Source: Planctomycetota bacterium
GTDB lineage: Bacteria; Planctomycetota; UBA11346
Length of the DNA: 48,416 bases
NCBI GenBank assembly: GCA_043788625.1
Contig: JAYVTR010000246.1
Location: 1 to 48,416 of the forward strand
Direction: 5' to 3'
Shown piece after piece: positions 6,637 through 24,313 of the stretch (position 1 is the first letter of the stretch; each line of letters opens with the position of its first letter). The notes under the pieces are model-generated. The model did no database searches and had not been told where the DNA came from. It saw nothing but the letters and a program-made list of their open reading frames with translations. A program made the translations under genes and the position numbers.

Positions 6637-6810
6637 GCGCGAGACCGATTCAGCGTTGAGCGTGCAAGCGGCGCAGTTTAGACAACCTCGACTGACGCAT
6701 GATCGACGGTCCCTGGCCATGGCAAAGGGTATGAAAAGTCGGAAACGACCTCCTCAGCAACGTCCTTGGCCTCTCGTCGGCTACCGGTGTGGCATTACGC
6801 TGACTGGACC

Positions 6811-8712: not shown

Positions 8713-8746
8713 CTCCCGAGCGCTCAGCTTCGGTTTTCGCGCTCTG

Positions 8747-8932
8747 CTAGGCGACGCGCTGCACGCCAAGCGGGGTCAGCGTTTCGGCCGCCTTGCGCAT
8801 GCGTTCATTAATGCGCTCGACCAAGGCCAGGGCTTCTGTTGCGGGATCCTGGACGTCATCATCGTGCAGGTCATCGAAATCACTCAGCTCGGGCGCAATC
8901 GGGGCCGACGCAGATGGTTGGATGTAGGGCAT
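8747..8932 (-). CDS. Small acidic hypothetical protein (61 aa)
   Basis: ATG is preceded by GAGAAGG about 6 nt upstream. No recognisable family. Confidence 0.35.
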   Translation of the reverse strand: MPYIQPSASAPIAPELSDFDDLHDDDVQDPATEALALVERINERMRKAAETLTPLGVQRVA

Positions 8933-9127
8933 GGCAACCTTCTCGGCGCTATCGTGCAGAGAGACGCGGTAAGAGGGGAGTAAGAAGAGAGCTGTGAGGT
9001 AGAACGAAATCAGTCTACCACACGAATGTTCATCGTGGGGCGACTTTATTATCGCGATGCAGCGGCATCAGTGAAGGCTGTGCTAAGAGACTTTTTTTTG
9101 CTGCATCAGGGCAGCAAATAGAGGCGT

Positions 9128-9499
9128 TTAGCCTGAAACCGTTCCATACGTAGCGACTACGGTGTTGCGCGCATCCAGAACCAAGACTTTGGGCTCGTGG
9201 CCGATGACTTCGTTTTCATTGTATAGGGCATAGCCGGCAATGATGACGATGTCGCCGCGTTGGGCATGACGGGCGGCGGCGCCATTGACGATGATCTGCC
9301 CATGACCGCGTTCGCCGGCGATCAGATAGGTCTCTAAGCGATAGCCATTGTGACAGTTCAATAGCTGGATGCGCTGATGGACCAAGAGGCCGGCACGTTC
9401 GATGAGGTCAAGGTCAACCGTTAAACTGCCAGGATAGTCAATACGGCAGTCGGTGACCGTCGCATGATGAAGCTTACCTTGGAGCATTTCGCGGAGCAT
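9128..9499 (-). CDS. panD: Aspartate 1-decarboxylase
   Basis: 'MLREMLQGKLHHATVTDCRIDYPGSLTVDLDL' contains the self-processing Gly-Ser site. 'RLETYLIAGERG.G.I.VNGAAAR' is typical PanD. Confidence 0.9.
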   Translation of the reverse strand: MLREMLQGKLHHATVTDCRIDYPGSLTVDLDLIERAGLLVHQRIQLLNCHNGYRLETYLIAGERGHGQIIVNGAAARHAQRGDIVIIAGYALYNENEVIGHEPKVLVLDARNTVVATYGTVSG

Positions 9500-9550
9500 G
9501 CCTTAAATGCTGGGCATTCGGGCGTCAGTGCAACTGTCATCAGCAGGAGG

Positions 9551-10528
9551 TCAGGCCGCGGTCGGGGTTGGGCCAGGCGGAGGTGTCGGCGGCGGAATCA
9601 GCGGATCCTTTGACAGATAACAACTTGAGCTCGGATGACCGCCACCGCCACGGGCAGCGGCAATGGTGGCGCAATCGGCGGTGGGCATGCCGGCACGGGC
9701 CCCCGAGCGCAGCGAATGCACCCACATCGGCGCATTGCCCTTGCGATAGAACAGCACTGCCAGGTCGTAACCCAGGCCACCCTCGGTGAGCGGTTGGCAA
9801 ATGTATTCGCCAAGTTCGTTCTGATCCTTGAAGCAATTGACGGCCAAGGCGCGCAGGCCCTTCACGCCATACGCGTCATTGATGGCAACGCCGCTTTTGG
9901 CCGCTTCGACCACCCGCTGCCGTTGGGCTTCGATCAATGGCCGGCCACGGTCCGCCATGGCGCTCAGATCGGCTTCGAGCAGGCCGGCATAAAGGCTATT
10001 CGGATAAGCGTCAACTAATCCGGCGCAAATCACCCGGCTGTCGGGCAGCTGCCAGCGCCACAGATCTTTGTCGCGGATGTACTGCACCACCGGCGGCGGT
10101 GGCTGGCTGGGAAAAAGAGTTTTCCAGGTCAGGGAGGTGCCACATTCGTCGAGGTCGAAGACGCCCCAGCCGAGGGTGCGCCAGATGTCTTCGGCGCTGG
10201 CGTGGTGATCGATCCATAGCAGGTCGCTGGCCTGGGCTTTGAGTTGGCGCATGGCTTCCAAGGGGAAGCCAAAATCTACCAAGTAGACAGATCGGCCTTC
10301 AACTTTGGGCGGTGGGTTGCTGTATTGTACCGCTAGGAATTCGCAGTCAGGCATCTTGCGCGCCACGACCGCGGCGGCGCCACTGCCATCGAGGCAGTTT
10401 TTGTGGTAGATGCACAGGGGGCGGGGAGAAGGCACGCGAAGGGATGTATCGTCACTTGCCGCCGGGAAAGCGGCGCCTGCGATTTTGGGGATGTCTTCCA
10501 GCGCTATCCCGGCACCGTGGGGCGGCAT
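9551..10528 (-). CDS. DHH/DHHA1 phosphoesterase, NrnB-like nanoRNase family
   Basis: 'IYHKNCLDGSG', 'IDHHAS', 'DKDLWRW' and 'GGGGHPSSS' parallel the B. subtilis NrnB blocks (SHNDLDG, IDHH, DTWEW, GGGGHAKA). The start is uncertain: the ORF is open to 10609, with ATG at 10528 and GTG at 10435 as candidates. Pro-rich C-terminal tail. Confidence 0.7.
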   Translation of the reverse strand: MPPHGAGIALEDIPKIAGAAFPAASDDTSLRVPSPRPLCIYHKNCLDGSGAAAVVARKMPDCEFLAVQYSNPPPKVEGRSVYLVDFGFPLEAMRQLKAQASDLLWIDHHASAEDIWRTLGWGVFDLDECGTSLTWKTLFPSQPPPPVVQYIRDKDLWRWQLPDSRVICAGLVDAYPNSLYAGLLEADLSAMADRGRPLIEAQRQRVVEAAKSGVAINDAYGVKGLRALAVNCFKDQNELGEYICQPLTEGGLGYDLAVLFYRKGNAPMWVHSLRSGARAGMPTADCATIAAARGGGGHPSSSCYLSKDPLIPPPTPPPGPTPTAA

Positions 10529-11432
10529 GCGTGTTGCTGATGTTTTGTTGCCCGTGGCCGTGGCTTTGAATGTGACGGCCTTATTGCTGCCATTCGTCAC
10601 CGTCACCATCGGTGTGACCAGCGAAGATTACTCGCTGCTACATACCGTCAGTATGTTGTGGAAGGGCGGCTTCCCGGGGTTGGCGGCGCTGGTCGGGTTG
10701 TTTTCGGTGGCCTTCCCATTCGCCAAGCTGGTAGTGCTGGCGGGAGTCTGTTGGGGCGGGTGGTCGTCCCGTTGGGTGACCACCATCGGCAGCCTCGGCA
10801 AGTGGTCGATGCTCGATCTGTTCCTGGTGGTTTTGTTGCTCGCCGTGTCGTATGACCGGTTGCTGGTGGCGGCGACGCCCAAGTTGGGTCTTTTGGTATT
10901 TACCCTGGGGATTATCGCCTCGATGGTGGTCGGCGAATTGCTGCATCAGCCATTCGATCACCAGCCGGTGCTGGCCAAGAAATGGCGATGGATGGTGTTG
11001 TTCATGGCCATGATCGGCACCACCGCGTCGATGCTGCTGCCACTGTTTGCTACCGACGCCTGGTTCATGACCGATGTGGCTTATAGCCTACCCGGTATCG
11101 GACAGCGGTTGTTCGAGGTGGGTGCATGGGTGCCGGCGTGTGCGGTGGGATTGTTCCTCATCATCATGCCTGTGGTGCGCCTGGTGTTTTTGAGCCTGCT
11201 GGTGTTCGCCGGCCAGCGCTGGTCGCCGGCGGCACGTTTTGCCGGGCGATGGTCGATGTTGGAGCCTTTCGCCTTGGCGCTGGCCATTTTCATCATCGAA
11301 GGCAAGGCGACGCTGCCCTCGGCACTCGATCATGGTGGAATGGTTTTGATCGCTGCCATGGCAGTATCGGCGCTCTCGAGCACATATTTGACGCATCGTC
11401 GCGGCGGCTGGCAGATATCGACGGCAACCTAA
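10527..11432 (+). CDS. Paraquat-inducible protein A (PqiA) family integral membrane protein
   Basis: Two internal repeats each end in 'GKWSMLDLF' or 'GRWSMLEPF', with multiple TM helices. ATG at 10527; the ORF is open from 10410. Confidence 0.7.
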   Translation: MRVADVLLPVAVALNVTALLLPFVTVTIGVTSEDYSLLHTVSMLWKGGFPGLAALVGLFSVAFPFAKLVVLAGVCWGGWSSRWVTTIGSLGKWSMLDLFLVVLLLAVSYDRLLVAATPKLGLLVFTLGIIASMVVGELLHQPFDHQPVLAKKWRWMVLFMAMIGTTASMLLPLFATDAWFMTDVAYSLPGIGQRLFEVGAWVPACAVGLFLIIMPVVRLVFLSLLVFAGQRWSPAARFAGRWSMLEPFALALAIFIIEGKATLPSALDHGGMVLIAAMAVSALSSTYLTHRRGGWQISTAT

Positions 11433-11587
11433 CCGTTGGCAGGCCTGGAAATCACGTATAAAAGCAGGGTTACGTCGTCTGCGTGTGCATTTGTGCGGCA
11501 AACGCCGGCCACTGCCGTTCAGCGCTTGCCCATCGTAACCACAACCCATCATCTGCGCTCCATTTTCGCCAGTCAAGGACGCCAGCT

Positions 11588-13699
11588 ATGGCCATCAATC
11601 TCGCTAAGACACGCAATTTCGGCATCGTTGCCCATATCGACTCGGGCAAGACCACCGTGTCGGAGCGCATTCTCTACTACACCGGTAAAAAGCACAAGAT
11701 CGGTGAAGTGCACGACGGTGCAGCGTCAACCGACTGGATGAAGGAAGAGCAGGAGCGCGGCATCACCATCACCGCCGCCGCCGTCTTCGCCCAGTGGAAG
11801 CGCCATGGCGAAACCTACGACATCAATCTGATCGACACCCCTGGACACGTGGACTTCACCGCTGAAGTCGAACGCTCCTGCCGTGTGCTCGACGGTGCTG
11901 TGGTGGTGTTCTGTGCCGTAGCCGGTGTGCAGGCACAGTCGGAAACCGTATGGCGCCAAGCCAACAAGTACTCGGTGCCACGCTTGGTGTTCGTCAACAA
12001 GATGGACCGCATGGGCGCCAACTTCGATCGCGTAGTCGGTCAGGTGGAAGAGCGTTTAGGCGGCCATCCAGTGCCCATCCAAATGCCGATCGGTGCTGGC
12101 GACGATTTCCGCGCCATCATCAACCTGCTCGACATGAAGTACTACACCTTCGAAGGCGACAAGGGTGAAGATCAAATCGAGCACGAGATTCCCGCTGAAT
12201 TCCTCGAAGAAGCGAAGGCTCGTCGCGCCAAGCTGATCGACTCCGCCGCTTCAGGTTGCGGCGACGAAGAGATCGAGATGACCTATCTCGAAACCGGTGC
12301 GCTCAGCGATGAGCAGCTGCTCAAGGCCCTGTGCATCGGCACCATGACCTTCAAGTTGCAGCCGATGTTGTGCGGCGCGGCGCTGCGCAACAAGGGTGTG
12401 CAGTTGCTGCTCGACACCGTCGTCGACATCCTGCCCAACCCGCGGGATGCCCACTCGATCAAACAGTTCGAGCTGGAAGACGTGCTCAAGGCCAATCCGA
12501 TTCCGACCACGTGCGACAGCAAGGCGCCATTGCGCGCCATGGTCTTCAAGATCATGTCGATGCCGAACCTCGGCGACGTGTCATTCGTGCGCGTCTACCA
12601 GGGCATCATCAAGGAAGGCGACGCACTCACCTGCCAGCCTTCAGGCAAGGGCGAACGCGCCGCACGCATGGTCAAGCTGGTCGGCGTGGTGCCAACCAAG
12701 ATCGACGAAGCCCCAGCCGGCGACATCGTCGCCCTGGTCGGCCTCAAGAACACCCGCACCGGTGACACCCTGTGCATGGCTGACGATCAGCACCCGATGG
12801 CGCTCGAAGGCATCAGCTTCGCCAAGCCGGTGATCTCGATGGCCATCGAACCGGCGTCGAACAACGACAAGGAAAAGCTGGCCTATGCCCTGGCGCGTCT
12901 CGAACGCGAAGATCCGACCTTCAAGAAGTGGGTCGATCCAGAAACCAGCCAGGTCATCATCTCGGGTATGGGCGAGCTGCATCTCGAAGTGCTGCAGCAC
13001 CGCATCCGTGACGAATACAAGGTCGACGCCGTCATCGGCAAGCCCAAGGTCAGCTACCGCGAAACCATCACCAAGCAGATCCAGATCCGCGGCAAGCACG
13101 TCAAGCAGTCGGGTGGTCGTGGTCAGTACGGTGATTGTATCCTCATCATCCGTCCGCTCACCGACGAAGAGAAGGCTGCCGGCAACGAGTTCATCTGGGT
13201 CGACGGCACCAAGGGCGGCACGGTTCCCAAGGAATTCCGTCCAGCCGTCGAAGAAGGCGTGCGTTCGGAGTTGCAGCGCGGCTACCTCGCTGGCTTCCCG
13301 ACCATCAACGTCTACGCCGAGTTGATCGACGGTTCGTACCATGACGTCGACTCGTCGCAGGAAGCGTTCATCGCCGCCGGTCGCTTGGCCATCCGCGAAG
13401 CCTACCCCAAGCTCGGCTGCCAGCTGCTCGAGCCGTGGATGAAGGTCGAAGTCGAAAGCCCTGAGCAGTTCATCGGCTCGGTCATGGGCTCGTTGCAGTC
13501 CAAGCGCGCCATCATCACTGAAACCGTTGATCGCGGCACCAATAAGATCGTGCGCTGCGAAGTGCCGTTGGGCGAAATGTTCGGCTACACCACCGACCTG
13601 CGCTCGATGAGCCAGGGCCGTGCCGGCTACTCGATGGAGCCAAGCGAATACAAGCCAGTGCCGAACTCGATGGTCGAGAAGTTGGCGAAGAAAGCCTAA
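11588..13699 (+). CDS. fusA: Translation elongation factor G (stand-alone copy)
   Basis: '[15 protein letters not shown]', '[12 protein letters not shown]', '[11 protein letters not shown]', 'FVNKMDR' and a domain IV/V tail are all present. ATG at 11588 with AAGGA upstream. Confidence 0.9.
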
Positions 13700-13737
13700 T
13701 CAGCTTCATCGGCAACCGCTTCCTGTTCAGCGGGACG

Positions 13738-13778
13738 CAAAAAAATACCCCGCGCCGTTTGGCGCGGGGTATTTTTTT
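13738..13778. terminator. Bidirectional rho-independent terminator
   Basis: An 11-bp perfect stem TACCCCGCGCC (13746-13756) / GGCGCGGGGTA (13761-13771) with a GTTT loop. It has an A-run upstream and a T-run (13772-13778) downstream. It sits between convergent fusA and the HxlR gene. Confidence 0.85.
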
Positions 13779-13788
13779 AAACTTCGCT

Positions 13789-14181
13789 TCAGGGCGTTTG
13801 AACACCCGCAGTTGCGGAAGTGGCCAAGCAGGGCGCATTATTATCTTTTTGTGCGATCTCCAGGTACGTCAGTCCCCAGTCGCGGATGGCGAAAAGCAGC
13901 GGACACAGGGATCTGCCAGCGGTGGAAAGCGCATATTCGACGCGCAATGGTGTGGCGTCCGCGGACACTGAGCGATTGATCAGCTGAGCGGTTTCTAGCT
14001 CCCGTAATTGACGGGTGAGCATGCGTTGAGTCACAGCTGGCGTTAAACGGCGTAGATCACTGAAGCGCTTCGGTTGGTCGATCAAGTGGAAGAGGATGAC
14101 GCTTTTCCATTTTCCACCAATCACTTCAAGGCATGCCTCGACCGGGCAGCCAAGATTTTTTCCATAATGTTGATGTGCCAT
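13789..14181 (-). CDS. HxlR family transcriptional regulator
   Basis: 'CPVEACLEVIGGKWKSVILFHL...PKRFSDLRR..P.VTQRMLTRQLRELE...LI.R' is the canonical HxlR winged helix. Confidence 0.85.
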   Translation of the reverse strand: MAHQHYGKNLGCPVEACLEVIGGKWKSVILFHLIDQPKRFSDLRRLTPAVTQRMLTRQLRELETAQLINRSVSADATPLRVEYALSTAGRSLCPLLFAIRDWGLTYLEIAQKDNNAPCLATSATAGVQTP

Positions 14182-14299
14182 AAGTCGCGGCGCCTGTTTG
14201 CTGTAGGAGGTTTCAGGGAGTATACTAACAGCTAAAAATGTGCCTACTGGTAATACGTGCAGCTTTTATAAAACGACGTCCCCCAAAGAAAGGCCTACT

Positions 14300-14809
14300 A
14301 TGTACGCTGCCGTTGTAACATTTTCACTTCTCGGATTCATCTGGGGGCTCACCTCATGTGAGTTGGCGGCAGAAGATAGCCTCACCATATCAAAATCGCA
14401 ACTTTACAGTGCGACTCCTGAACAAGTGTGGGGTCTGATCAAGAATTTCGATGCCATCCAAAAGTGGCATCCGGCAATCGCAACGAGCGAAATCACCAAG
14501 AACGGTGCCAATAAGATCGGTACCGTGCGTGTCTTGACCACCAAAGACGGAGCGCAAATCACCGAAGAGCTGCTGAAGTACGAAGACAAGGGGATGTCGT
14601 ATCAATATACGATCAAGAAGTCGCCGATGCCGCTGACCGATTTCGTTGCCGACATCACCATTGAAAAAGTCACCGGTGGGGCGCTGTTGGTGTGGAATGT
14701 GACGTGTAAAGCGGCGGCAAATACGCCGGATGAGAACGTGCGCGCCATGGTGGGCGGCTTTCTCGATGCCGGGATGGCAAAGATCAAAACGCTGCTCCAA
14801 GACCATTAA
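14300..14809 (+). CDS. SRPBCC (START/Bet v1-like) family protein, probable lipoprotein
   Basis: 'QVWGLIKNFDAIQKWHPAI...' and 'YQYTIKKSPMPLTDFVADITIE' fit the SRPBCC pattern. The N-terminal 'LLGFIWGLTSC' is lipobox-like. ATG at 14300 with AAAGAAAGG upstream. The gene is divergent from the HxlR gene. Confidence 0.7.
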   Translation: MYAAVVTFSLLGFIWGLTSCELAAEDSLTISKSQLYSATPEQVWGLIKNFDAIQKWHPAIATSEITKNGANKIGTVRVLTTKDGAQITEELLKYEDKGMSYQYTIKKSPMPLTDFVADITIEKVTGGALLVWNVTCKAAANTPDENVRAMVGGFLDAGMAKIKTLLQDH

Positions 14810-14850
14810 AAAGCGTATGCGCCAGCCGCTGACACGGTCGGCGAACGGAA

Positions 14851-14866
14851 AAAACGTTTTCGAAAA
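14851..14866. promoter_or_regulatory. Two overlapping 10-bp palindromes (AAAACGTTTT / TTTTCGAAAA) upstream of the island operon
   Basis: Read directly: AAAACGTTTTCGAAAA lies 63 nt upstream of the AsnB-like ATG, in the 119-nt gap after the SRPBCC gene. The operator or promoter role is inferred only. Confidence 0.3.
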
Positions 14867-14928
14867 TTGCAGGCATGCAGGACCAGCATTTTCGGACCAA
14901 CTTCTCAACTGCGAAACTAAGGGTTTCT

Positions 14929-16932
14929 ATGTGCGGCGTCACGGCGATTTGGGATATCAATAGTATCGATCGGGATAAGCGCGAGCGCATCGTTAAGATG
15001 ACCAATGCGCTTGCCCATCGCGGACCCAACAGCAAAGGCGCCTATGTGTCGCCAACATGTGCCCTAGGGCATGCACGGTTATCGATCATCGATATAGCCA
15101 GTGGCCAGCAGCCGTTTTCAATTGCTGGCTATACGATGGTCTTTAATGGAGAAATTTACAATTATATTGAATTGAAAGACCAGCTGACAGCACGCGGCCA
15201 TGTATTCATGACTGCCAGCGACACGGAGGTAGCCCTGAGATGCTACATGGAATATGGTGCTGATTGTTTCGCAAAGTTTAATGGCGAATGGGCAATCATT
15301 ATCTATGACAAGGTACGCACCAGATTGATAGTGGCCCGCGACCGCTACGGCATCCGCCCATTGTTCACCACCCAAGATCATCACGGCGTCGCTTATTTTT
15401 CGTCTGAGATAAAGTCATTCGATTATATTGAAGGATTTTCCAGGCAGTACGATCAGCAGGCCTTGATCGAACATGGGATGTTGTGGAATACTATTGGTGA
15501 GACGACTGTTTATAAGGGGGTTCAGTCGCTTTCCGCAGGTCATTATCGGGTTTATGAGAACAGCGACCATTTCACAGACCATCTCTATTATGAAATTGGC
15601 GAATCACTCGGGATGCGGCCAGAGCCGTCGTTTTCAGACGCTAGCGAACTCACCAGAAGCTTATTAAAAGACGCTATACGCCTGCGTTTGCGCACTGAGG
15701 TGCCCTACGGGGTTTACCTCAGTGGTGGAATCGATTCCTGCATCATAGCTGGGTTGGTCAAGGAACTGGCGCCCAGCGGTTTCAGTACCTATTCGGTGGC
15801 CTTCGATAATAAATCATTTGATGAAAGCTCTTATCAATCGCTGATGGTCGATCGGTTGCAATCACATCACCATCAGGTGGTGATCGATAACTCAGCGATC
15901 GAAGATAATCTGCAGCGGGTGGTACGGCACGTCGAGCGGCCTTTGTTTCGTACGGCTCCAGTGCCAATGTACCATCTGGCGAGGGCGGCGGCGAGCGACG
16001 GCATAAAAGTCGTGCTGACTGGTGAAGCAGCGGATGAGATATTCTGTGGCTATGACACTTTTAAAGAGGCGAAACTGTTAGAGTTTTGGGGTAAAGACAT
16101 CGCTTCTGAAATACGCCCGCACCTCATCAAGCGACTGTACCCGCATTTGGCCCATTATGGCAGCGGCAAACAATATGGCATGATGAAGATGTATTATCAA
16201 GGAATGGTCAAGAAAGTTGACCCGCTCTTTGGTGCCATGGCCATTCGTATGCACAATAACGAAGCTGTATTGGGACTGATGAATGGCGATTTCATCGGTG
16301 GTTATAGCCTGGATGCCACCCGCGAGAAAATGAAGTCGGTTTTGCCGAAAAACTGGGAAAAATTCTCAATATTACAAAAAACATCTTTCCGCGAGATGAA
16401 GACCCTGCTGGAGGGCTATTTATTGTCGTCACAAGGCGATCGGATGACCATGGCCAATGGTGTAGAGGGGCGTTATCCGTTTCTGGACCACCGCGTGGTC
16501 GAGCATGCGATATCCTTGCCTGATCGCTATAAGATGCCTGGATTCAACCAGAAATATATCCTGAAAAAGGCGTTCTCAGACCTCGTTCCGCACGCGATCG
16601 TGAATCGGCCTAAGCAACCCTATCAAGCACCGGACATCTATCCATTCATCGACGCAGACGGAAAGGTGAAGGAGTCGGTGGCCGGGTTTCTTTCCAAAAC
16701 GGAGATAGAAAATGCCGGCGTATTTGAATATAAAATGGTCGAGCAGTTTCTTGAAAAGATCAAGAGCCGTCGCAATGCTCAGTACGGGTACCGCGACAAT
16801 ATGTTGTTTGTATTCATGTTGACGACGCAAATGGCAATTAAACAGCGTGAACCGATCTACTCTACTTTTGATGAAGCTGAATTCCCAATACACCAAGAAC
16901 CGGAGCTTAGTTTAACTATGAGGCATTCATGA
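14929..16932 (+). CDS. Asparagine synthetase B-like glutamine-dependent amidotransferase (667 aa)
   Basis: 'MCG' gives the N-terminal Cys nucleophile. 'HRGPN', 'NGEIYN' and 'SDTEV' are GATase class II blocks. 'VYLSGGIDS' is the PP-loop of the synthetase domain. Confidence 0.9.
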   Translation: MCGVTAIWDINSIDRDKRERIVKMTNALAHRGPNSKGAYVSPTCALGHARLSIIDIASGQQPFSIAGYTMVFNGEIYNYIELKDQLTARGHVFMTASDTEVALRCYMEYGADCFAKFNGEWAIIIYDKVRTRLIVARDRYGIRPLFTTQDHHGVAYFSSEIKSFDYIEGFSRQYDQQALIEHGMLWNTIGETTVYKGVQSLSAGHYRVYENSDHFTDHLYYEIGESLGMRPEPSFSDASELTRSLLKDAIRLRLRTEVPYGVYLSGGIDSCIIAGLVKELAPSGFSTYSVAFDNKSFDESSYQSLMVDRLQSHHHQVVIDNSAIEDNLQRVVRHVERPLFRTAPVPMYHLARAAASDGIKVVLTGEAADEIFCGYDTFKEAKLLEFWGKDIASEIRPHLIKRLYPHLAHYGSGKQYGMMKMYYQGMVKKVDPLFGAMAIRMHNNEAVLGLMNGDFIGGYSLDATREKMKSVLPKNWEKFSILQKTSFREMKTLLEGYLLSSQGDRMTMANGVEGRYPFLDHRVVEHAISLPDRYKMPGFNQKYILKKAFSDLVPHAIVNRPKQPYQAPDIYPFIDADGKVKESVAGFLSKTEIENAGVFEYKMVEQFLEKIKSRRNAQYGYRDNMLFVFMLTTQMAIKQREPIYSTFDEAEFPIHQEPELSLTMRHS

Positions 16933-17201
16933 ATAATCTAAAACTGACAGGCGAAGACATCGAAGGCATGGTTATCGAATTCATCTGCCGAAACTTCATG
17001 GTCTCAAATCCGGATTCCATATGCCGGTCGAAGTCGCTTATCGATCAGGGAATCATAGATTCCTTCGGCCTGATCGAGATTGCGGCGTTCATGGACTCCA
17101 AGTTTTCAGTTACAGTCGAGGATATGGACATGCACAGCGGTAACTTCGGATCTGTCATTTCCATGACTGATTTCATCGCCAAGAAACTCGGTTCATCATG
17201 A
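16929..17201 (+). CDS. Free-standing acyl/peptidyl carrier protein (phosphopantetheine-binding)
   Basis: 90 aa. 'LIDQGIIDSFGLIEIAAFM' contains the (D/I)DS-hydrophobic carrier-protein serine motif. ATGA overlaps occur at both ends (16929-16932 and 17198-17201). Confidence 0.75.
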   Translation: MNNLKLTGEDIEGMVIEFICRNFMVSNPDSICRSKSLIDQGIIDSFGLIEIAAFMDSKFSVTVEDMDMHSGNFGSVISMTDFIAKKLGSS

Positions 17202-18262
17202 CCCAAAGTACATTCCTGCGGTGCAGTTCATGCGCTCTGACAAGCGGATTTCCAGGTATTGAATTCGACGATCAGGGGGTCTGCTCGCTATGCCGTGAGA
17301 AAGCTTTTTATAGCGCCTCCGATGCAATGATCGACCAAGCGCGCGAGCGTATTGGACAGATGTTCTCGTTCGGCAGCGATCGTGGAGAGTATGATGCCAT
17401 CGTCTGCTACAGTGGCGGTAAAGACAGTTCGTATACGCTATCTTTGGCGGTAAATAAATACAAATTGCGAGTACTCGCATTCACCCTAGATAATGGCCAT
17501 CTGTCGTCATACGCGCTCGACAACATCAACCGTGTGGTCGACAGTTTAGGCATTGATCACATAATGGTCCGCCCAGCCCAGCCGCATATGAAGGCGATCA
17601 TCAAGGCCAGTGCCTTGTACCCCATCTACAATCAGAAGACGTTGATGCGCATCTCATCGATTTGCCAGTCTTGCATTTCGATCGTCAATATCACCGCCAT
17701 CAAGTTTGCTCTGGAAAAAAAGGTTCGCTTCATTCTCGCAGGATTCACCTTGGGGCAGATTCCAACCAATGCCGTGGTCTACCAGAACAACTACAATTTC
17801 TTTAAAGAGAGCCGTAAGAGTTCTTTGGATAAATTGCGCAGTCATACCGGTGATTATGTTGACCGCTACTTCTGTCTCGATGAATCACTATTAAAAGAGG
17901 TCAAGGAATTCCCGTATAATATAAATCTGTTGTGCCTGGAAGACATCAGTGAAGACCAGATCGTCGAAGAAGTAAAGAAAATGGGTTGGCGTTCGCCTAA
18001 GGACGTAGATGGCTGCTCATCCAATTGCCGTCTGAACACGTTCAACAATATCGTTCATAAAAAAATCCATGGCTACAATCCGTACGAGCTCGAGCTCAGT
18101 CATTTGATTAGAAAAGGCCAGATCGGACGTGATCAGGCGATTGAAAAACTGGAAGACCAGCACGACGGCATCTATAGGAAGATTCTTGGTCAACTGGATC
18201 TGAATGAGGGTGATATCGATCAGGCGATCATCCGTAATTCAGAGGAATTCAAGGTTTCATAA
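17198..18262 (+). CDS. PP-loop ATP-pyrophosphatase of the N-acetyl sugar amidotransferase (WbuX/WbpG/PseA-like) family
   Basis: N-terminal 'CSSC...FPGIEFDDQGVCSLC' is a Zn-ribbon. 'YDAIVCYSGGKDSS' is a PP-loop. The C-terminal 'YELELSHLIRKGQIGRDQAIEKLE' matches the conserved tail of this family. Confidence 0.75.
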   Translation: MTQSTFLRCSSCALTSGFPGIEFDDQGVCSLCREKAFYSASDAMIDQARERIGQMFSFGSDRGEYDAIVCYSGGKDSSYTLSLAVNKYKLRVLAFTLDNGHLSSYALDNINRVVDSLGIDHIMVRPAQPHMKAIIKASALYPIYNQKTLMRISSICQSCISIVNITAIKFALEKKVRFILAGFTLGQIPTNAVVYQNNYNFFKESRKSSLDKLRSHTGDYVDRYFCLDESLLKEVKEFPYNINLLCLEDISEDQIVEEVKKMGWRSPKDVDGCSSNCRLNTFNNIVHKKIHGYNPYELELSHLIRKGQIGRDQAIEKLEDQHDGIYRKILGQLDLNEGDIDQAIIRNSEEFKVS

Positions 18263-18263
18263 A

Positions 18264-18545
18264 ATGTATGTGATCATATCTGGGGACGGCATAAACCCGG
18301 GAAGTTTCACCGCCACCTTGCGCGGTGAAATTCCCACCATTGGCCAATATGGTGGACGAGTGTTGGCGAAAAATTGCCAGTTCAGTTGTGAGCTGGGTGA
18401 TGGGACTCCAGAAATTTTGGCTATTCAACAGTGGCCAGACAGAGGGGCATTCAGCGCCTGGTGTTCATCTACGGAATATCAGCGGTGGGCTCAGCTGCAT
18501 GCGGATGCCTGTGATGTAAGTATCCTGGTGATGGAAGAGACATGA
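18264..18545 (+). CDS. DUF1330 domain protein
   Basis: 93 aa. 'QYGGRVLA' and 'ILAIQQWPDRGAFSAWCSSTEYQRWAQLHADACDVSILVME' follow the DUF1330 (dimeric alpha/beta barrel) pattern. Confidence 0.7.
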   Translation: MYVIISGDGINPGSFTATLRGEIPTIGQYGGRVLAKNCQFSCELGDGTPEILAIQQWPDRGAFSAWCSSTEYQRWAQLHADACDVSILVMEET

Positions 18546-19699
18546 AGCGTATCGCCATAACCGGATCACTTGGTACCGGAAAAAGTACCCTCGCCAAAGA
18601 GCTGTCACGGCGTACGGGCAGGCCCCTGGACCACGCTCGGCAAATGCGTGAGATTTTACCTGAGATGTTTCCAGGCAAGCAGCTCATGGAATGCTCGCCC
18701 TGGCAAATATTCCAAATGTTCACGGCCCGCATGAGTGAAAGGGCCATGTCGGTTGCGGGCATGCCGTGTGAACTGGTTTCGGATGGATGCGCACTCAATG
18801 ATTGGGCATTCCTCTATGCACGCTGTTTTTCTGATCCGCATGGGAAAGGAAAATTGATTGCCGAGGTCGGCTACCGCGAGGCTGTCGAAAACCTGTTGCC
18901 GTCGATTAGGCGCGCCCTGAAGCAGCAATACAGCCACATGGTGCTCTGCGGCATCGATTTCGGCATCGTCGCCGACGGCCAACGGCCAACCTCGGAAAAG
19001 TTCAGGAAGATCGCCAATGATCTCATCGTGAAGGAGTTGGCAACGCTCGATGTGCATACCGTGACGGTCAATGGCGACATCGAAGGTCGGCTAAAATTAT
19101 GCCAGGCCGGCTTGGGAATCCACCTGTCCAAAACCTATACCGCTCTTTTATGCAATTGCCCAAGCGATGAGGGGCAATTGATGAATTATGATCAGATAGA
19201 CGACATCCTTGGTGAAAAAAGTTCGCGTTTTTTTTCAAATGGATTTCGCAAGGTGAACCACCATTTGCGCAATGTCGAAGTGAATAAGGTCGGTAAGTAC
19301 ATATCTGGCGTCATTGATATCGAAGCGCGTGACGATTGGTCAATTCGCAAGACCGGCCAAGAGCCCTATCACGTGACCAATATTGATGCCTTGCTTATCG
19401 CCGGTCAATTCGCCCAGGTGCTGATGTTTGCCATGGACGGGATTAGACGAGGAGAGAACGGCAACATGTGGGTGCGCCATGTCGAACTAGCGACTATCAA
19501 CAAAGTCGAGAGCCTCAGCGGCATCGATTTCCATATGCGCTGTGAAGACAGCAAGATCATCACCAAAGACGGTGAGAGATGGCATCTGGCGACACTGTCG
19601 TGCGAGATGGCGGGCGGGAAAATAAAGATGATCAATTACAAGGTCTGCTATCAACTGAAGCCGCAGGCTAATAAAGAGCTTTGCATCGCCAATGAATAA
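18542..19699 (+). CDS. P-loop NTPase (AAA_28/NadR-kinase-like N-terminal domain) fused to an unassigned ~190-aa C-terminal domain
   Basis: Walker A 'ITGSLGTGKSTLAKEL' lies at the N-terminus. The C-terminal half ('HVTNIDALLIAGQFAQVLMFAMDG...WVRHVELATINKVE...IDFHMRCED...') has a long helix followed by several beta-like segments, and I cannot assign a family. ATGA overlap with the DUF1330 gene. Confidence 0.6.
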   Translation: MKRIAITGSLGTGKSTLAKELSRRTGRPLDHARQMREILPEMFPGKQLMECSPWQIFQMFTARMSERAMSVAGMPCELVSDGCALNDWAFLYARCFSDPHGKGKLIAEVGYREAVENLLPSIRRALKQQYSHMVLCGIDFGIVADGQRPTSEKFRKIANDLIVKELATLDVHTVTVNGDIEGRLKLCQAGLGIHLSKTYTALLCNCPSDEGQLMNYDQIDDILGEKSSRFFSNGFRKVNHHLRNVEVNKVGKYISGVIDIEARDDWSIRKTGQEPYHVTNIDALLIAGQFAQVLMFAMDGIRRGENGNMWVRHVELATINKVESLSGIDFHMRCEDSKIITKDGERWHLATLSCEMAGGKIKMINYKVCYQLKPQANKELCIANE

Positions 19700-20906
19700 G
19701 TCGGTTATCTTCTCAATCATGGCCGAGGGGGTCCTCTCGCGCCTGAGCTTTGGCATGATCGGTCTGGCACTGCCTCTTTATGCCGAAAAAATCGGTATGG
19801 GGATTCAAGAGATTGGCATTCTCCTGTCGTTTCACTTCATCACCGAGATGTCCCTGAAGCGTTGGGTCAGTGCCAAAATCGATGTCATCGGCTTGCGTGC
19901 GGGCTTGTCGATCGCCTTATTTTTACGCTCGACCGTAGGCGCCCTGTTGCTGTTTTCGCTTACCTCGTGGCATCTGTTTGCGATCCGTGCTTTGCATGGC
20001 GCTTCAGAATCAGGACGTGAACCGGCGATCAACGCGCTCATGGCATCAACTGGCGGGATCAAGAAGTCCGGAGTCATCTTCGGTTGGTATAATTCATTGC
20101 GTGCCGCCGCCGGATCGCTCGGCAAGGCTCTGGCGAGTTTCCTGCTGATTTTACCGCTCAGCGGTTTCACCTCCATATTCTGTTTATCATTCATCGTCTC
20201 ATTCATCTGCGCCGTCGTAGTCACGGTCTTGTTGAAGAACAAGATCCCAGCAAGTAGTGCGGTAGACATTCCCAACTCACCAGCGCCGAAGGATGAAAAG
20301 CATGCGCTGGTGTTGCCGGCTTCACCGGCACCCACCATGAAAATGGTTTCCCTTTACGGTATCCTGATCAGTGCTTCGGGATCGATGCTCAATCTCTTGT
20401 TCCCGCTCATTGCGCTCAAATACGCGGGCATCAATGAGGCTGCACTCGGTACGATCTACCTGGCGGCGTCAGTCGTGGTGATGGTATCAGGACCATTCTT
20501 TGGCTGGCTTACAGATAACCTGAGTGGCAAGGCCGTCATGGCTACCAGAGGTGTATGCAATATCGCCTCGTCACTGACGATCATAAGTTATCCCTCATTT
20601 GCCGGCATGCTCGTCAGCGCCGTTTTGGATGATGCCGGCAAGGCCGCCTTCAGGTCTGCCTGGGGCAGTGTCTTGGCGAAGATAAGCGTCGGTAATCCCA
20701 GTGGGCGAGTGGCAACCGCCGGCAAGCTCGGGCTTTCCGAAAATGTCGGCGAGGTCTGCGGTCCGATCATCGGCGGTCTGATCTGGGGCTTATGGGGATT
20801 GCCGTTGGTGATGGTGGCACGTATCGCCTTGGCGTTCTCTTCCGAGATGGTGCTCGCGCAAATAGTCAAAAATGAGATGTCCATACGCGAAAGAAAAGCT
20901 GAGTAA
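19692..20906 (+). CDS. MFS transporter
   Basis: 404 aa with about 12 hydrophobic segments. The loop 'SLKRWVSAKIDVIGLR' resembles the MFS TM2-3 motif. 8-nt overlap with the upstream gene. Confidence 0.8.
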   Translation: MNKSVIFSIMAEGVLSRLSFGMIGLALPLYAEKIGMGIQEIGILLSFHFITEMSLKRWVSAKIDVIGLRAGLSIALFLRSTVGALLLFSLTSWHLFAIRALHGASESGREPAINALMASTGGIKKSGVIFGWYNSLRAAAGSLGKALASFLLILPLSGFTSIFCLSFIVSFICAVVVTVLLKNKIPASSAVDIPNSPAPKDEKHALVLPASPAPTMKMVSLYGILISASGSMLNLLFPLIALKYAGINEAALGTIYLAASVVVMVSGPFFGWLTDNLSGKAVMATRGVCNIASSLTIISYPSFAGMLVSAVLDDAGKAAFRSAWGSVLAKISVGNPSGRVATAGKLGLSENVGEVCGPIIGGLIWGLWGLPLVMVARIALAFSSEMVLAQIVKNEMSIRERKAE

Positions 20907-20907
20907 C

Positions 20908-22206
20908 ATGTTTAATTTTCGTAGCGTTGCACCACTGGTTGCGACGTTGTTTTTTCTTGCCTCTGGCTTCGCCGAGGAAGCTGCTTCTGAAAAATCTACT
21001 TCTGAAAAAGTCGCGTCTGAAAAACCTGCCTCTGAAAAACCTGCCTTTGAAAAAACAGGTACGGACATTCCACCGCCGAGCTTGCCGTCGACTCCCATAC
21101 CGAAGTTCTACGACAAGATCACGGTCACCCTGCAGGCTCGTATCGATTATGGCGGTTTAAATCCAGCTGCTGACGACACGCATTATCAAGATTCGCTCAA
21201 TTCTTATATCCGTCATTTCCGCATCGGAGTGCAAGGGGTATGCTACCTCAAGGATCTATTCTATGATGTGGCGCTCGAAGGCGATTACACCGACAAGGCG
21301 CCCAACAACACCGCTTACCAATCGAACGCCCCCAATGAGGATACCGATGTACCGGTTACGGTAAGCGAAGCGTTCATCAAATATAAGGTCAATAGTGCTT
21401 TTGAAATACGCTTCGGCAAAGCTAAGTTGCCATATTCCCGGGTCTACCTGACCAGCTCGAGCCTGCAGCTGATCATGGACCGGCCGTTGTTCACTACCGA
21501 CCTCCGTGATTTCTTTCACCGCTATGTGCATACCGGCGTTCAAGTCTCGGGTGGGGTGTATGATGACAGCATCGTGTATTACCTGAGCGTCAGCGATGGC
21601 TTCAAAAGCGGTAATCGCATTGGCGATACTGCGGGACAGATGAATCATCTCACCGTCAGTTCTGCGGGCCCTTTAACAGTGGCACGTATCGAGGTTTCGC
21701 CCAGTGGCTGGAACGAGAAAAAGCGCAACGATTCGCATCTCGGCGAAGGCCGGCATCTCACGCTGGGGGTCAATGACGGCTATCAAGGCGCTATCCGTTA
21801 TAATGAGACCGATGGCGAAGAGAGCCGCAACTTGCTGGGCGCCGATCTGTCTTTTCATTATGAAAGCCTGACTTTGCAAACTGAATATGACCTGTGGAAG
21901 AACCATACCACCGTCAACGACCAGATAGATGCGGCAGGTTTTTATGTGCAGGGCGGGTGGTTTTTCAAAACCATCAATGTCGAACCGGTGCTGCGTTATG
22001 AGATCTTCGAGGAAAACAAAAACCTTGCGGATGCGACCACCACGGTCCTTACCCCGGGGGTTAACTGGTATGTATCAGGGCATGACTTGAAAGTCGCCTT
22101 CAACTGGTCGCGCTATTTGTATTCGGCGGACTCGGCAGGCGGTTATGGCAGCTCATTGAATCGAAATGTTTTTGAGCTGGGAGTGCAGCTGAAGCGGTCG
22201 TTCTGA
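20908..22206 (+). CDS. Outer-membrane porin, phosphate-selective porin O/P (OprO/OprP)-like, with N-terminal SEK pentapeptide repeats
   Basis: Signal peptide 'MFNFRSVAPLVATLFFLASGFA'. Alternating beta-strand pattern with 'GFYVQGGWFF', 'VEPVLRYE' and 'NWYVSGHDLKVAFNWS', and a terminal aromatic residue. The start is 1 nt after the MFS stop. Confidence 0.7.
   Translation: MFNFRSVAPLVATLFFLASGFAEEAASEKSTSEKVASEKPASEKPAFEKTGTDIPPPSLPSTPIPKFYDKITVTLQARIDYGGLNPAADDTHYQDSLNSYIRHFRIGVQGVCYLKDLFYDVALEGDYTDKAPNNTAYQSNAPNEDTDVPVTVSEAFIKYKVNSAFEIRFGKAKLPYSRVYLTSSSLQLIMDRPLFTTDLRDFFHRYVHTGVQVSGGVYDDSIVYYLSVSDGFKSGNRIGDTAGQMNHLTVSSAGPLTVARIEVSPSGWNEKKRNDSHLGEGRHLTLGVNDGYQGAIRYNETDGEESRNLLGADLSFHYESLTLQTEYDLWKNHTTVNDQIDAAGFYVQGGWFFKTINVEPVLRYEIFEENKNLADATTTVLTPGVNWYVSGHDLKVAFNWSRYLYSADSAGGYGSSLNRNVFELGVQLKRSF
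20983..21057 (+). repeat. In-frame 15-nt tandem repeat x5 (consensus GCNTCTGAAAAANNN) encoding ASEKS-TSEKV-ASEKP-ASEKP-AFEKT
   Basis: Read directly. The units begin at 20983, 20998, 21013, 21028 and 21043, in frame with the porin ORF immediately after its signal peptide. Confidence 0.9.
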
Positions 22207-22260
22207 AAAGGTTCATTTATCCGCTGACTGTTTATTTGCGAACGGCTATTTATCCACGAG

Positions 22261-23229
22261 TTATTCACGAGCGAAGAAGAGCACACCCAGCACCAGCAGC
22301 AATGGCAGGGCAGTGGTCAGAGTGGCATAGCCGACCAAGCCCAGGACCACGCTGACGGCTATCGGTAAACGCAGATGCAGGCCATATTTCGACGGTTGTG
22401 GCCAGCGCCACGCCCACAGGCCGGCAGCGGCGGCGATGACAAGGCAGCCGGCCACTGCCGGCAGGAAACCAAATCGGATGAATTGCCCGCCTAGACCGTG
22501 TTCCAATACCGAGAGAGGGTCGCCGTGGAAAAAATCCATGGCCTTGCGTGCAAGAATGAAACAGACGGCGCTCAGCAGCAGGCCGCCGCCGATGACCAGC
22601 GGCAACACCAGGCGTTGCACCTGCGGCTCATGCCAGCGGGCATGGATAAAGGCCAGCCAGCTGCCGGCGACAGTAACTACCCCCACCGCAAAGGTACCGC
22701 TGGTGACTGACATCATGAGCAGACCCACGGTTTGCCCGGTGATGATCCACGCCAAATGCCGCCGGCAGCCGGCAGCTTGGTCGACGTGGATAGCAGTAAG
22801 CAGGGCCAAGCCGGCAAAAGCGGGAATGACCCGGCCATTCATGGTCAGCGTGGCCAATGCGAGGGGCAGCAGCAGCCATACGCGCAGGGCAGGCTCGCGG
22901 GCGGGCACCGCGGCCGCCAGCGCGCCGACCTTGGCCAGCAAGAGGGTGGTGGCCCACACCAGGCCAAAGCAAATGACGGTGAAGACCATATCCGGGTCGA
23001 CGTGCAGGTGGGTAAACGCCATGGCTGGTTGCATCACCAGCCAGCGCAGCGCGTGCGGATGCAGCGACGAAAAGACCGACCACGCACTGGCGTCTTCGAG
23101 GACGAGGATCTGATCCCACACCACAAAGCGCTTCAAGCCGAGAGCCAGGATCAGGGCATAGATCCCCAATCCACAGCGCCAAGCGGCAGGTGATTCAAGG
23201 TGGCGACGGAGGTCGGTGCAGGTCAGCAA
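22261..23229 (-). CDS. Polytopic integral membrane protein, unassigned family
   Basis: 322-aa ORF with about 9 hydrophobic helices and high GC. Only a TTG is available at the ORF start, so the true start is uncertain. Confidence 0.5.
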   Translation of the reverse strand: MLTCTDLRRHLESPAAWRCGLGIYALILALGLKRFVVWDQILVLEDASAWSVFSSLHPHALRWLVMQPAMAFTHLHVDPDMVFTVICFGLVWATTLLLAKVGALAAAVPAREPALRVWLLLPLALATLTMNGRVIPAFAGLALLTAIHVDQAAGCRRHLAWIITGQTVGLLMMSVTSGTFAVGVVTVAGSWLAFIHARWHEPQVQRLVLPLVIGGGLLLSAVCFILARKAMDFFHGDPLSVLEHGLGGQFIRFGFLPAVAGCLVIAAAAGLWAWRWPQPSKYGLHLRLPIAVSVVLGLVGYATLTTALPLLLVLGVLFFARE

Positions 23230-23299
23230 TGGGCCTCACTAAGGCTGCGTTGTACCTGTTGCTGTCATGCATACCATCAGCGCCCAGCGGAGGCGCACC

Positions 23300-24172
23300 A
23301 TGCAGCAGCAAGAAGTGTTCCCGGCGGTATGCTTGTCGATCGGCATGTCGGACTCGTCCGGCAGCGGCGGCACCCAGGCCGATCTGAAGACGTTCACGGC
23401 CTTGAGCTGTTATGGCGTGTCGATCGTCACCGGTGTGGCCGCCCACAGTCTCGGCCGCCTCTACGAGCTGTTTCCCTTACCTGAATCGGTAGTTCGCTCG
23501 CAGCTTGAAGCGGCCGGCGAAGATCTGCCGATCACCTCGGTCAAAGTCGGTTTTTGTCCGTCGATTGCCACCATGCGCGTAGTTGCCCGCTGGTTGCGTG
23601 AGCGACCCAAGGTAGCGGTGGTGGTCGACCCGGTGGCCCGCGACAGCCGCGGCATCCCCTTGCTGTCGCCCGAGCAGGTCGCGTGTCTGAAGGATGAGCT
23701 GCTGCCACGCGCCACGGTGTCGACGCCCAACCGACATGAGGCCGCCCTGCTCACGGGCATGGAAGAGGTCTTGGCGAAATCGGATATGGAAGACGCCGCC
23801 AAAGAGATGCTCAAGCGGTATGGCTGTCCGACCCTCGTCACCGGTGGCGGCTTGCAGGGCATGAGCCTGGATGTGTTGGCCGGCCTCGACGGTTTGCGTC
23901 ACTTCTCATTCCCGACTGTGCAACGCGCCAAGATCCATGGCACGGGTGCGACCTTTTCGGCGGCGGTGGCTGCTGGCTTGTCCAAGGGCGATAGCCTGCG
24001 CGAGGCCATCTTGGCCGCCAAGTTGTATGTATCGGCGGCTATTTCGGCTGCCCCGCGGCTCGAAAATGGACGCAGCGCACTATGGCATTCAGTGACGGTG
24101 CGCGAACAAGTGATCGCCACCCAGTCGGACTCATGGCCGGCGGTACATGTGCATCGGCCTTCGAGCGGCTGA
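23300..24172 (+). CDS. thiD: Hydroxymethylpyrimidine/phosphomethylpyrimidine kinase
   Basis: 'LSIGMSDSSGSGGTQADLKTF' and 'IHGTGATFSAAVAAGLSKG' match the ThiD/PdxK ribokinase-fold blocks. ATG at 23300 has GGAGG 7 nt upstream; the ORF is open from 23267. Confidence 0.85.
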   Translation: MQQQEVFPAVCLSIGMSDSSGSGGTQADLKTFTALSCYGVSIVTGVAAHSLGRLYELFPLPESVVRSQLEAAGEDLPITSVKVGFCPSIATMRVVARWLRERPKVAVVVDPVARDSRGIPLLSPEQVACLKDELLPRATVSTPNRHEAALLTGMEEVLAKSDMEDAAKEMLKRYGCPTLVTGGGLQGMSLDVLAGLDGLRHFSFPTVQRAKIHGTGATFSAAVAAGLSKGDSLREAILAAKLYVSAAISAAPRLENGRSALWHSVTVREQVIATQSDSWPAVHVHRPSSG

Positions 24173-24313
24173 GACGAACATGTTGATACGGCGTTTTGTC
24201 CTTTTTCGAAGCGACAGAAGGCAATAACAACGACGTTTTCATAGTTCCGGTGCCAACTGGTTGAAGTTACCATCGGCGAATCACCTAGCCACGGTTCGCC
24301 AAAGGTTTCCCAC

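Follow-up and report, generated by a model that had tools for sequence, protein, structure and literature searches.

According to a 2026 preprint on gladiolin biosynthesis, succinyl groups, and malonyl groups as well, are transferred in vitro from coenzyme A (CoA) to the free-standing acyl carrier protein (ACP) GbnA by the acyltransferase GbnB (10.64898/2026.04.24.720606). As succinamyl-CoA is not loaded and labelling traces the amide nitrogen to glutamine, amidation by the AsnB homologue GbnC is placed after the loading of GbnA, a model backed by genetics, labelling and loading assays (10.64898/2026.04.24.720606). The same logic was proposed earlier for MgsD/MgsC of iso-migrastatin and other glutarimides and has been extended to EtnC/EtnA of etnangien and to SorQ/SorV; in sorangicin biosynthesis, the SorV ACP would be malonylated by a transacylase shared with the polyketide synthase (PKS) (10.64898/2026.04.24.720606). 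Here, we analyze a gene pair that resembles these systems, found in a 48,416-nucleotide stretch of DNA from a Planctomycetota bacterium (assembly GCA_043788625.1, contig JAYVTR010000246.1, positions 1 to 48,416; hereafter the window). Between positions 14,929 and 17,201, an AsnB-like gene is followed by the gene of a 90-residue carrier protein, within an inserted low-GC island that has no enzyme dedicated to loading the carrier.

In all four published pairs, as in the window, an AsnB homologue with a working glutaminase stands beside a dedicated free-standing ACP. Systems of the GbnC/MgsD type have no adenylating loader; a transacylase transfers the acyl group from its CoA ester to the ACP, and ATP and glutamine then serve to form the amide while the group is carrier-bound. 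By analogy, the window pair belongs to this known class, and it surprises less than at first sight, since the question of an AsnB/carrier pair without a loader already has a published answer. There are also differences. The island contains neither a PKS nor a transacylase gene, the single FabD-like gene lying elsewhere in the genome, and a PP-loop enzyme with a Cys triad, not described in the published systems, is an obligate neighbor in the clade of the window enzyme. Furthermore, the downstream partner here is an AvrD-like fusion, whereas in relatives it is a condensation-adenylation-thiolation (C-A-T) module of a nonribosomal peptide synthetase (NRPS). We consider it moderately probable that the AsnB-like protein uses glutamine and ATP to amidate a carrier-bound acyl group at its free carboxylate, the carrier being loaded by host enzymes. 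What is new, as judged from the literature searched, is that the pair forms a trio with a NASAT-like enzyme rich in Cys, and that this trio is coupled, in an inserted island, to a kinase-AvrD fusion that is itself rare. That literature yielded neither a description of the trio nor one of a carrier-bound malonamyl-to-nitrile step.

The AsnB-like gene opens with ATG TGC GGC at 14929 (Met-Cys-Gly), which places a Cys directly after Met1, and this C2 is nearly invariant across 24 homologues. Fully invariant in the same 24 are the PP-loop (S265-G266-G267-I268-D269-S270), the glutaminase blocks (R50 L51 S52 I53 D55; N73 G74 E75; D98 T99 E100), and T364-G365-E366...D369-E370, which aligns with the catalytic Ser-Gly-Glu of AsnB and human ASNS. 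Pfam recognizes a GATase_7 domain (6.9e-39) and an Asn_synthase domain (PF00733; 3.2e-86, 290.6 bits), and the protein passes TIGR01536 with 461.6 bits against a cut-off of 267.1. These motifs and profiles identify a class II (Ntn) glutamine amidotransferase of the asparagine synthase family (PF13537 plus PF00733; TIGR01536), with an intact catalytic apparatus. An earlier note on this DNA, made from the letters alone, had called the enzyme complete on the strength of Cys1, the GATase II blocks and SGGIDS, and had the stop codon of its gene overlapping the start of the carrier gene. Both claims are borne out, the overlap being an ATGA in which the TGA at 16930-16932 shares bases with the ATG at 16929.

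More specific family models do not claim the protein. The E. coli AsnB model (NF006949/PRK09431 type) gives 314.5 bits against a cut-off of 499, and the XrtA/PEP-CTERM amidotransferase model TIGR03108 gives 379.8 against 816.9; scores with the NAGGN and lasso-cyclase models are likewise under their cut-offs. Among solved structures, the best relative is 7ylz, deposited as a hydroxyamidotransferase (1.4e-56), followed by E. coli AsnB (1.4e-48). Beta-lactam and carbapenam synthetases have an inactive N-terminal domain without a Cys nucleophile. The window enzyme has that Cys, and it matches 1jgt and 1q15 of this group at 9.8e-11 and 1.6e-6 only, against 1.4e-48 for AsnB. In human ASNS, an acidic cluster (E364, D367, and E368) binds the amino group of aspartate; the cluster is kept in the AsnB-like enzyme as E366, D369, and E370, and the same motif occurs in 7ylz, the substrate of which we take not to be an amino acid. 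As the motif is kept in 7ylz too, it does not tell substrates apart, and we rejected it as a substrate indicator, common as it is to all three enzymes. No orthologue of the AsnB-like enzyme was found in five congeners or in the other family members searched. The five congeners share a different AsnB paralogue with approximately 34% identity, which in the host genome lies on another contig (C367).

The 90-residue product is a real but divergent carrier protein, judging from sequence and model, with phosphopantetheinylation predicted at Ser45. The earlier note had read it as a carrier from its IDSFGL motif, and would have counted it against its own interpretation if a PP-binding match was missing and the AsnB-like protein also clustered with housekeeping asparagine synthetases. 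Half of that case has arisen, as the match to Pfam PP-binding (PF00550) is below threshold (13.4 bits versus a gathering score of 20.8; E = 0.098), but the protein behaves as a carrier by every other test. NCBIfam ACP models match it (2.5e-9 for AmcB and 2.9e-7 for the OlsHI ACP), all under their cut-offs, which sets it apart from AcpP-like carriers. At least 72 homologues share 44 to 56% identity with it, many of them with PF00550, and in an alignment of 37 of these the residues G41, I43, D44, S45, F46, G47, and L48 are invariant. A profile of the family matches solved peptidyl, D-alanyl, and acyl carrier proteins (best 1e-11). The AlphaFold2 (AF2) model (pLDDT 89.3) is a four-helix bundle (helices 8-22, 45-59, 70-73, and 76-88) with Ser45 at the start of helix 2, and its top fold matches are all acyl or peptidyl carrier proteins, including T. 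maritima ACP (TM 0.80/0.91). Prediction of the AsnB-like/carrier complex with alignments gave run scores of 0.01, 0.53, and 0.05, with the median below the mark and no controls, and is counted neither for nor against binding.

Pfam and NCBIfam scans of the island proteins reveal no AMP-binding, acyltransferase, or phosphopantetheinyl transferase (PPTase) gene. The absence of a dedicated loader, on which the earlier note had been explicit, holds for the island and for most of the close clade of the AsnB-like enzyme. The host genome, 78% complete, contains one FabD-like transacylase gene (contig C415) and one AcpS-like PPTase gene (contig C327). Because published ACPs of this kind are loaded by acyltransferases, and both genes are in the genome, the missing loader would most simply be the host FabD-like transacylase together with AcpS. 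Hence the earlier view that loading must use one of the PP-loop enzymes or a host enzyme can be narrowed, as loading by a PP-loop enzyme is not needed. Elsewhere in the genome, a second carrier-dependent locus on contig C292 comprises, at about 7900-17700, three PP-binding matches and two AMP-binding genes, one with an internal TGA, and no AsnB-like gene.

To place the pair among its relatives, a profile scan with the AsnB-like enzyme over one genome per species listed 80 loci from many phyla, the scans sampling at least these. Of the 80, 47 have a carrier homologue within 5 kb, and 33 have one within 400 nt. The homologue is on the same strand as the AsnB-like gene in 47/47 cases and downstream of it in 42. 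The identities of the two proteins to the window copies co-vary (r = 0.81, n = 47), a descriptive value, the loci being related and not independent. The pairing of the AsnB-like enzyme with the carrier is not chance.

In a FastTree phylogeny of 78 AsnB-like enzymes, with references limited to relatives at hand, the clade that holds the window enzyme has 100% local support (branch length 0.75) and otherwise consists of enzymes from Saccharicrinis (L010 and L012), Desulfobulbaceae (L011), Gynuella (L013), Myxococcales (L014), and Fibrobacter (L015). The phylogenetic placement that the earlier note had called for was thus obtained against these relatives, with family-model cut-offs and solved structures serving as the remaining reference points. 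Four of the loci (L010, L012, L013, and L014) also hold the PP-loop gene found next to the carrier in the window, at 51 to 55% identity by alignment and 52 to 58% by tblastn, so we treat AsnB, carrier, and PP-loop genes as a trio. The trio recurs in Bacteroidota, Desulfobacterota, Myxococcota, and Gammaproteobacteria, usually heading small NRPS-PKS clusters. In Gynuella (L013), for example, a C-A-T NRPS module comes next, then an alpha/beta hydrolase and a PKS with ketosynthase (KS) and acyltransferase domains; PKS genes follow it also in L106, L108, L109, L113, and L115. One Saccharicrinis locus (L012) continues with a free-standing condensation domain, a DegT aminotransferase, and two FemAB-like proteins. 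In the other (L010), a divergent Sfp-type PPTase gene lies upstream and an MBOAT gene downstream. None of the related loci examined contains the DUF1330, AvrD fusion, transporter, or porin genes of the island.

A profile scan of metagenomes with the PP-loop enzyme listed 80 further loci, 16 of them at 50% identity or more and 64 more distant. The 16 have the order AsnB, carrier, PP-loop, then C-A-T NRPS, hydrolase, and PKS. Ten of these have at least 2.5 kb of flank, and in these ten we count AsnB in eight, a condensation domain in six, PKS in five, and a ligase match of at least 30% identity in one. The distant loci are of another make: a fatty-acyl-CoA-ligase-like gene is present in 18 of the 37 with enough flank, and some have in addition a NadE-like second PP-loop enzyme. 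By score, this ligase is of the long-chain acyl-CoA type, and it is similar to the exosortase-associated TIGR03098, while the NadE-like protein passes NF002048. The exosortase A (PEP-CTERM) cassette (TIGR03108, TIGR03098, and an ACP) similarly combines AsnB-like, carrier, and fatty-acyl-ligase-like genes, in surface-polysaccharide loci, and is in this respect like the distant L019, L021, and L023. The window differs from it in having no ligase or exosortase context and in scoring under the family cut-offs, that of TIGR03108 given above among them.

We also note that a four-gene cassette (AsnB-like, carrier, fatty-acyl-CoA-ligase-like, and NadE-like PP-loop genes) is present in L019, L021, L023, L027, L029, L031, L035, and many other loci, in Rhizobiales, Thiodiazotropha symbionts, Acidobacteriota, and other hosts, with sugar-modifying genes adjoining in places (L019 and L021). 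It resembles the exosortase-associated cassette, under the cut-offs of the latter, and seems uncharacterized. Separately, in the Saccharicrinis metagenome-assembled genome with L010, the PPTase gene (6765-7532, minus strand) and a convergent block (12104-15343, minus strand) with the MBOAT O-acyltransferase, an alpha/beta hydrolase, and two uncharacterized proteins form an arrangement reminiscent of carrier-dependent Dlt-type acylation of a surface polymer.

The third gene of the trio also overlaps its predecessor by ATGA (carrier stop at 17199-17201, PP-loop gene ATG at 17198), and its product has an SGGKDS PP-loop motif. The best solved relative by profile is the Legionella NASAT 8wex (6.6e-15), which is also the best Foldseek match of the AF2 model (pLDDT 91.8; E = 6e-13, TM 0.66). 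The next fold matches, TtuA, NcsA, YcfA, and LarE, are PP-loop enzymes that transfer sulfur or form thioamides, and several of the deposited structures contain an Fe-S cluster. A search of a protein atlas matched only unnamed PP-loop clusters. Like the NASATs (TIGR03573: WbuX, WbpG; 8wex, PMC10607449), the third enzyme has a zinc ribbon, an SGGKDS PP-loop, and their fold. It differs from them in scoring 121.1 bits with TIGR03573, below the cut-off of 203.2, in having a Cys triad, and in its setting, as neither sugar genes nor HisH/HisF-like partners were found in the island. Seven cysteines are conserved in the window protein and in those of loci L010, L012-L014, and L103-L171, four of them forming the zinc ribbon and three the triad (C156, C159, and C277). 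Across 37 PP-loop homologues, down to 31% identity, C9, C29, C32, C156, C159, and C277 are invariant and C12 is kept in at least 90%. All three triad cysteines are absent in 8 of 10 bona fide NASATs, defined as passing the TIGR03573 cut-off. The remaining two (L097 and L098) have a CWHC at the same place, with Cys at the CxxC columns and another Cys one column from C277, and this CWHC hints at a second Cys-bearing NASAT subgroup.

Two PP-loop enzymes are known to act on carrier-bound amides, the closthioamide thioamide synthetase CtaC and the AMDH domain of CysH/AlbIV (PMC6772006, PMC7966384). For CtaC, C154, C157, and C284 are the proposed Fe-S ligands (PMC6772006). The AMDH domain, 38 kDa with an SGGKD motif, converts asparagine bound to a thiolation domain to cyanoalanine or isoasparagine (PMC7966384). 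These thiotemplated PP-loop (AANH) enzymes are, like the third enzyme, of the ATP-pyrophosphatase type, with the amide held on a carrier. Size and cysteines are comparable too (about 38 kDa for AMDH versus 354 residues here; C154/C157/C284 in CtaC versus C156/C159/C277 here). In contrast to them, the third enzyme is free-standing and not embedded in an adenylation domain, and it would receive an amide formed in place by the AsnB-like enzyme, not one loaded as asparagine. The likeness, supported by size, motif, and Cys spacing, is an analogy, and on it we suggest that the third enzyme probably converts a carrier-bound amide further. As possible AMDH-like relatives, we considered long open frames of 657 to 1044 residues in the phylum with a C-terminal zinc-ribbon/SGGRDS PP-loop domain (L183, G117:C52; L184, G028:C41; and L185, G087:C91). 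They were rejected as relatives of the trio enzyme, sharing 24 to 25% identity with it and lacking the Cys triad, and make up a separate subfamily, distinct from both NASATs and the trio enzyme.

Further along the operon, a fusion protein joins an AAA_28 domain (Pfam, 1.6e-10) to an AvrD-like domain (PF05655; 5.8e-20, 72.4 bits versus 25, profile positions 163-322 of 331). In 5.8 billion proteins, one other fused homologue was recovered (P0195, 34% identity, on a 10.7-kb contig), and further matches are to the kinase half alone; a sequence search of the AvrD half against solved structures gave no match. Members of the AvrD family are proposed to condense 3-oxoacyl thioesters with pentuloses. 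In methylenomycin biosynthesis, a 3-oxoacyl-ACP is the proposed substrate of the AvrD homologue MmyD, and a transacylase of primary metabolism would malonylate the ACP (PMC12593393). MmyD and the window have in common an AvrD-family domain and a free-standing ACP without a dedicated transacylase, and the published model borrows the malonyl transferase of primary metabolism (PMC12593393). They differ in that the AvrD half is here fused to a NadR-like kinase domain and in that the island has no ketosynthase III for a 3-oxoacyl chain, for which the AsnB-like enzyme would supply a 3-amino-3-oxo analogue. A malonamyl thioester would be just such an analogue of the 3-oxoacyl thioesters proposed as substrates of the family, and we regard the fusion, from its domains, as a candidate off-loading enzyme.

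Starting from the observed gene content, motifs, folds, trio conservation, island insertion, and host FabD-like and AcpS-like genes, we propose the following route. The host AcpS-type PPTase would prime Ser45, and the host FabD-like transacylase would load malonyl (most simply) or another dicarboxylyl group from CoA. The AsnB-like enzyme would then adenylate the distal carboxylate and deliver ammonia from its own glutaminase, giving a carrier-bound primary amide such as malonamyl-S-carrier. The PP-loop enzyme with the Cys triad may next use ATP to activate the amide oxygen, so that the carrier then bears a thioamide, nitrile, or amidine. In relatives, this product would pass as a starter to a condensation domain or PKS; here, the AvrD-like domain would take it and join it to a sugar, perhaps phosphorylated by the fused NadR-like kinase, and the transporter and anion porin would move the polar product or a precursor. 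Amidation of a carrier-bound dicarboxylate, one of two options in the earlier note, is the best-supported reading, by virtue of the GbnC/GbnA and MgsD/MgsC precedent. More speculatively, and with distinctly less confidence, the trio could be a widespread way to build an N- or S-modified C3-like starter unit on a carrier (malonamyl to thioamide, nitrile, or amidine), which the kinase-AvrD fusion would join to a sugar to give an undescribed small anionic metabolite.

Several points weigh against this route. The kinship of the AsnB-like enzyme to the GbnC, MgsD, and OxyD type is by analogy, not by tree. The role given to the triad comes from sequence conservation, the AvrD match spans the C-terminal half of the profile only, and the island is without a condensation domain, KS, or thioesterase. 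We infer the identity of the acyl group, and likewise the loader, the chemistry of the third enzyme, and the off-loading step. Finally, an unlinked ligase could also load this carrier, since distant relatives carry a ligase beside the carrier and the genome is incomplete.

This last point leads to the alternative that survives best, albeit as an unlikely one, in which the chemistry is the same and the loader is an unlinked acyl-ACP ligase or adenylation domain acting on another acid, such as a longer dicarboxylate or aspartate/glutamate. As many as 40 of the 47 carrier-bearing loci also have an AMP-binding gene within 5 kb, the ligase of distant cassettes being TIGR03098-like and of the fatty-acyl-CoA type, and at least five AMP-binding genes lie on other contigs of the host genome, which is 78% complete. 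However, the close clade lacks a cassette-type stand-alone ligase. The lone match of at least 30% identity among the ten well-flanked loci adjoins the carrier in L174, a locus with a truncated PP-loop gene. In addition, no close copy of the cassette-type ligase was found in the 78% complete host genome, the best match there having 31% identity over part of the length.

Less probable still is that the AsnB-like enzyme amidates a free small molecule while the carrier serves the PP-loop or AvrD-like enzymes, their adjacency reflecting a shared pathway. Many AsnB paralogues do act on free substrates, the 7ylz hydroxyamidotransferase is the nearest solved relative, and in the Myxococcales locus (L014) the AsnB gene is parted from the carrier by other genes. 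Such a division of labor sits poorly with the tight AsnB-then-carrier order across phyla, with the co-divergence of the two proteins, and with the same pairing in the published enzymes.

Loading of the carrier by the trio itself, with one of its two PP-loop enzymes adenylating a free acid and the phosphopantetheine thiol capturing the adenylate, we consider very unlikely. It would suit the lack of a stand-alone loader in the island and most close-clade loci, and in the PP-loop enzyme LarE, named as an ATP-dependent sacrificial sulfur transferase, adenylation is followed by thioester formation with a cysteine of the enzyme itself. Yet we know of no PP-loop enzyme shown to acylate a carrier protein, and in the distant cassettes, where a ligase is retained beside both PP-loop enzymes, the latter are not the loaders. 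Thiol capture of an acyl-adenylate made by the AsnB-like enzyme, the second option of the earlier note, is disfavored as well, because the glutaminase is invariant, making ammonia for an amide, and because distant cassettes keep a separate ligase alongside the AsnB-like enzyme. That the protein is an ordinary housekeeping asparagine synthetase next to a fatty-acid ACP is hardly credible and was rejected: it passes the broad TIGR01536, but it misses the E. coli AsnB cut-off, has no orthologue found in the five congeners or the other family members searched, belongs to an inserted stretch of low GC, and is paired with a carrier that is not AcpP-like. The housekeeping relationship that would have told against the earlier note is not borne out.

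Should the third enzyme make a thioamide, nitrile, or amidine from a carrier-bound primary amide, the three genes would amount to a small, transferable pathway for unusual starter units. The trio would then also be a marker for mining new natural products, and its third member a new family of free-standing, carrier-dependent PP-loop tailoring enzymes, present in at least dozens of the loci sampled. As the island is minimal, with eight operon genes plus a divergent regulator and no megasynthase, it is convenient for in vitro chemistry.

The island is a low-GC stretch of 8.48 kb (44 to 56% GC) in a window whose composition profile is otherwise about 60 to 65% GC, including the flanks (Table 1). 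In a congeneric genome (G003), the same flanks are separated by 165 bp: window positions 11506-13779 align with 8706-10977 of the congener locus (L193) and 22262-24174 with 11142-13051. As the flanking EF-G and membrane genes are only this far apart in the congener, the whole of 13780-22261, including the HxlR and SRPBCC genes, is the insertion. The island is horizontally acquired and inserted relative to the congeneric genome. No integrase, transposase, or tRNA gene was seen in the inserted stretch.

Table 1. Features of the island and their positions in the window
Feature	Position	Strand	Basis and context
Low-GC island	13780..22261		Composition and congener comparison; between EF-G (elongation factor G) paralogue and core membrane gene
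HxlR-type regulator	13789..14181	-	Pfam HxlR 1.1e-29; divergent from operon, within island
SRPBCC/polyketide-cyclase-like protein	14240..14809	+	Pfam Polyketide_cyc2 3.5e-27; first operon-strand gene
AsnB-like glutamine-dependent amide synthetase (putative), 667 aa	14929..16932	+	Pfam, TIGR01536, Cys after Met1, SGGIDS 265-270
Free-standing carrier protein, 90 aa	16929..17201	+	Ser45 in GIIDSFGL; ATGA overlap at both ends
Zinc-ribbon PP-loop ATP pyrophosphatase, 354 aa	17198..18262	+	NASAT-like fold and Cys triad C156, C159, C277
DUF1330 protein (dimeric alpha-beta-barrel type), ~93 aa	18264..18545	+	Pfam DUF1330 3.2e-9
AAA_28 (NadR/nicotinamide-riboside-kinase-like) P-loop and C-terminal half AvrD-like fusion	18542..19699	+	Pfam
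Major facilitator superfamily (MFS) transporter	19692..20906	+	Pfam MFS_1 5e-25
OprO/OprP-like anion porin	20872..22206	+	Pfam Porin_O_P 1.6e-28; final island gene

The longest open reading frame of the DUF1330 gene (18204-18545) overlaps the PP-loop gene by 59 nt; the in-frame ATG at 18264, two bases past the PP-loop stop, suits the Pfam DUF1330 domain better and gives the product listed in Table 1. The stop codon of this gene in turn overlaps the ATG of the kinase-AvrD fusion gene. For the MFS transporter, the sub-threshold NCBIfam matches are to PgtP and D-galactonate (organic-anion) transporter models, which hint at an organic anion as cargo.

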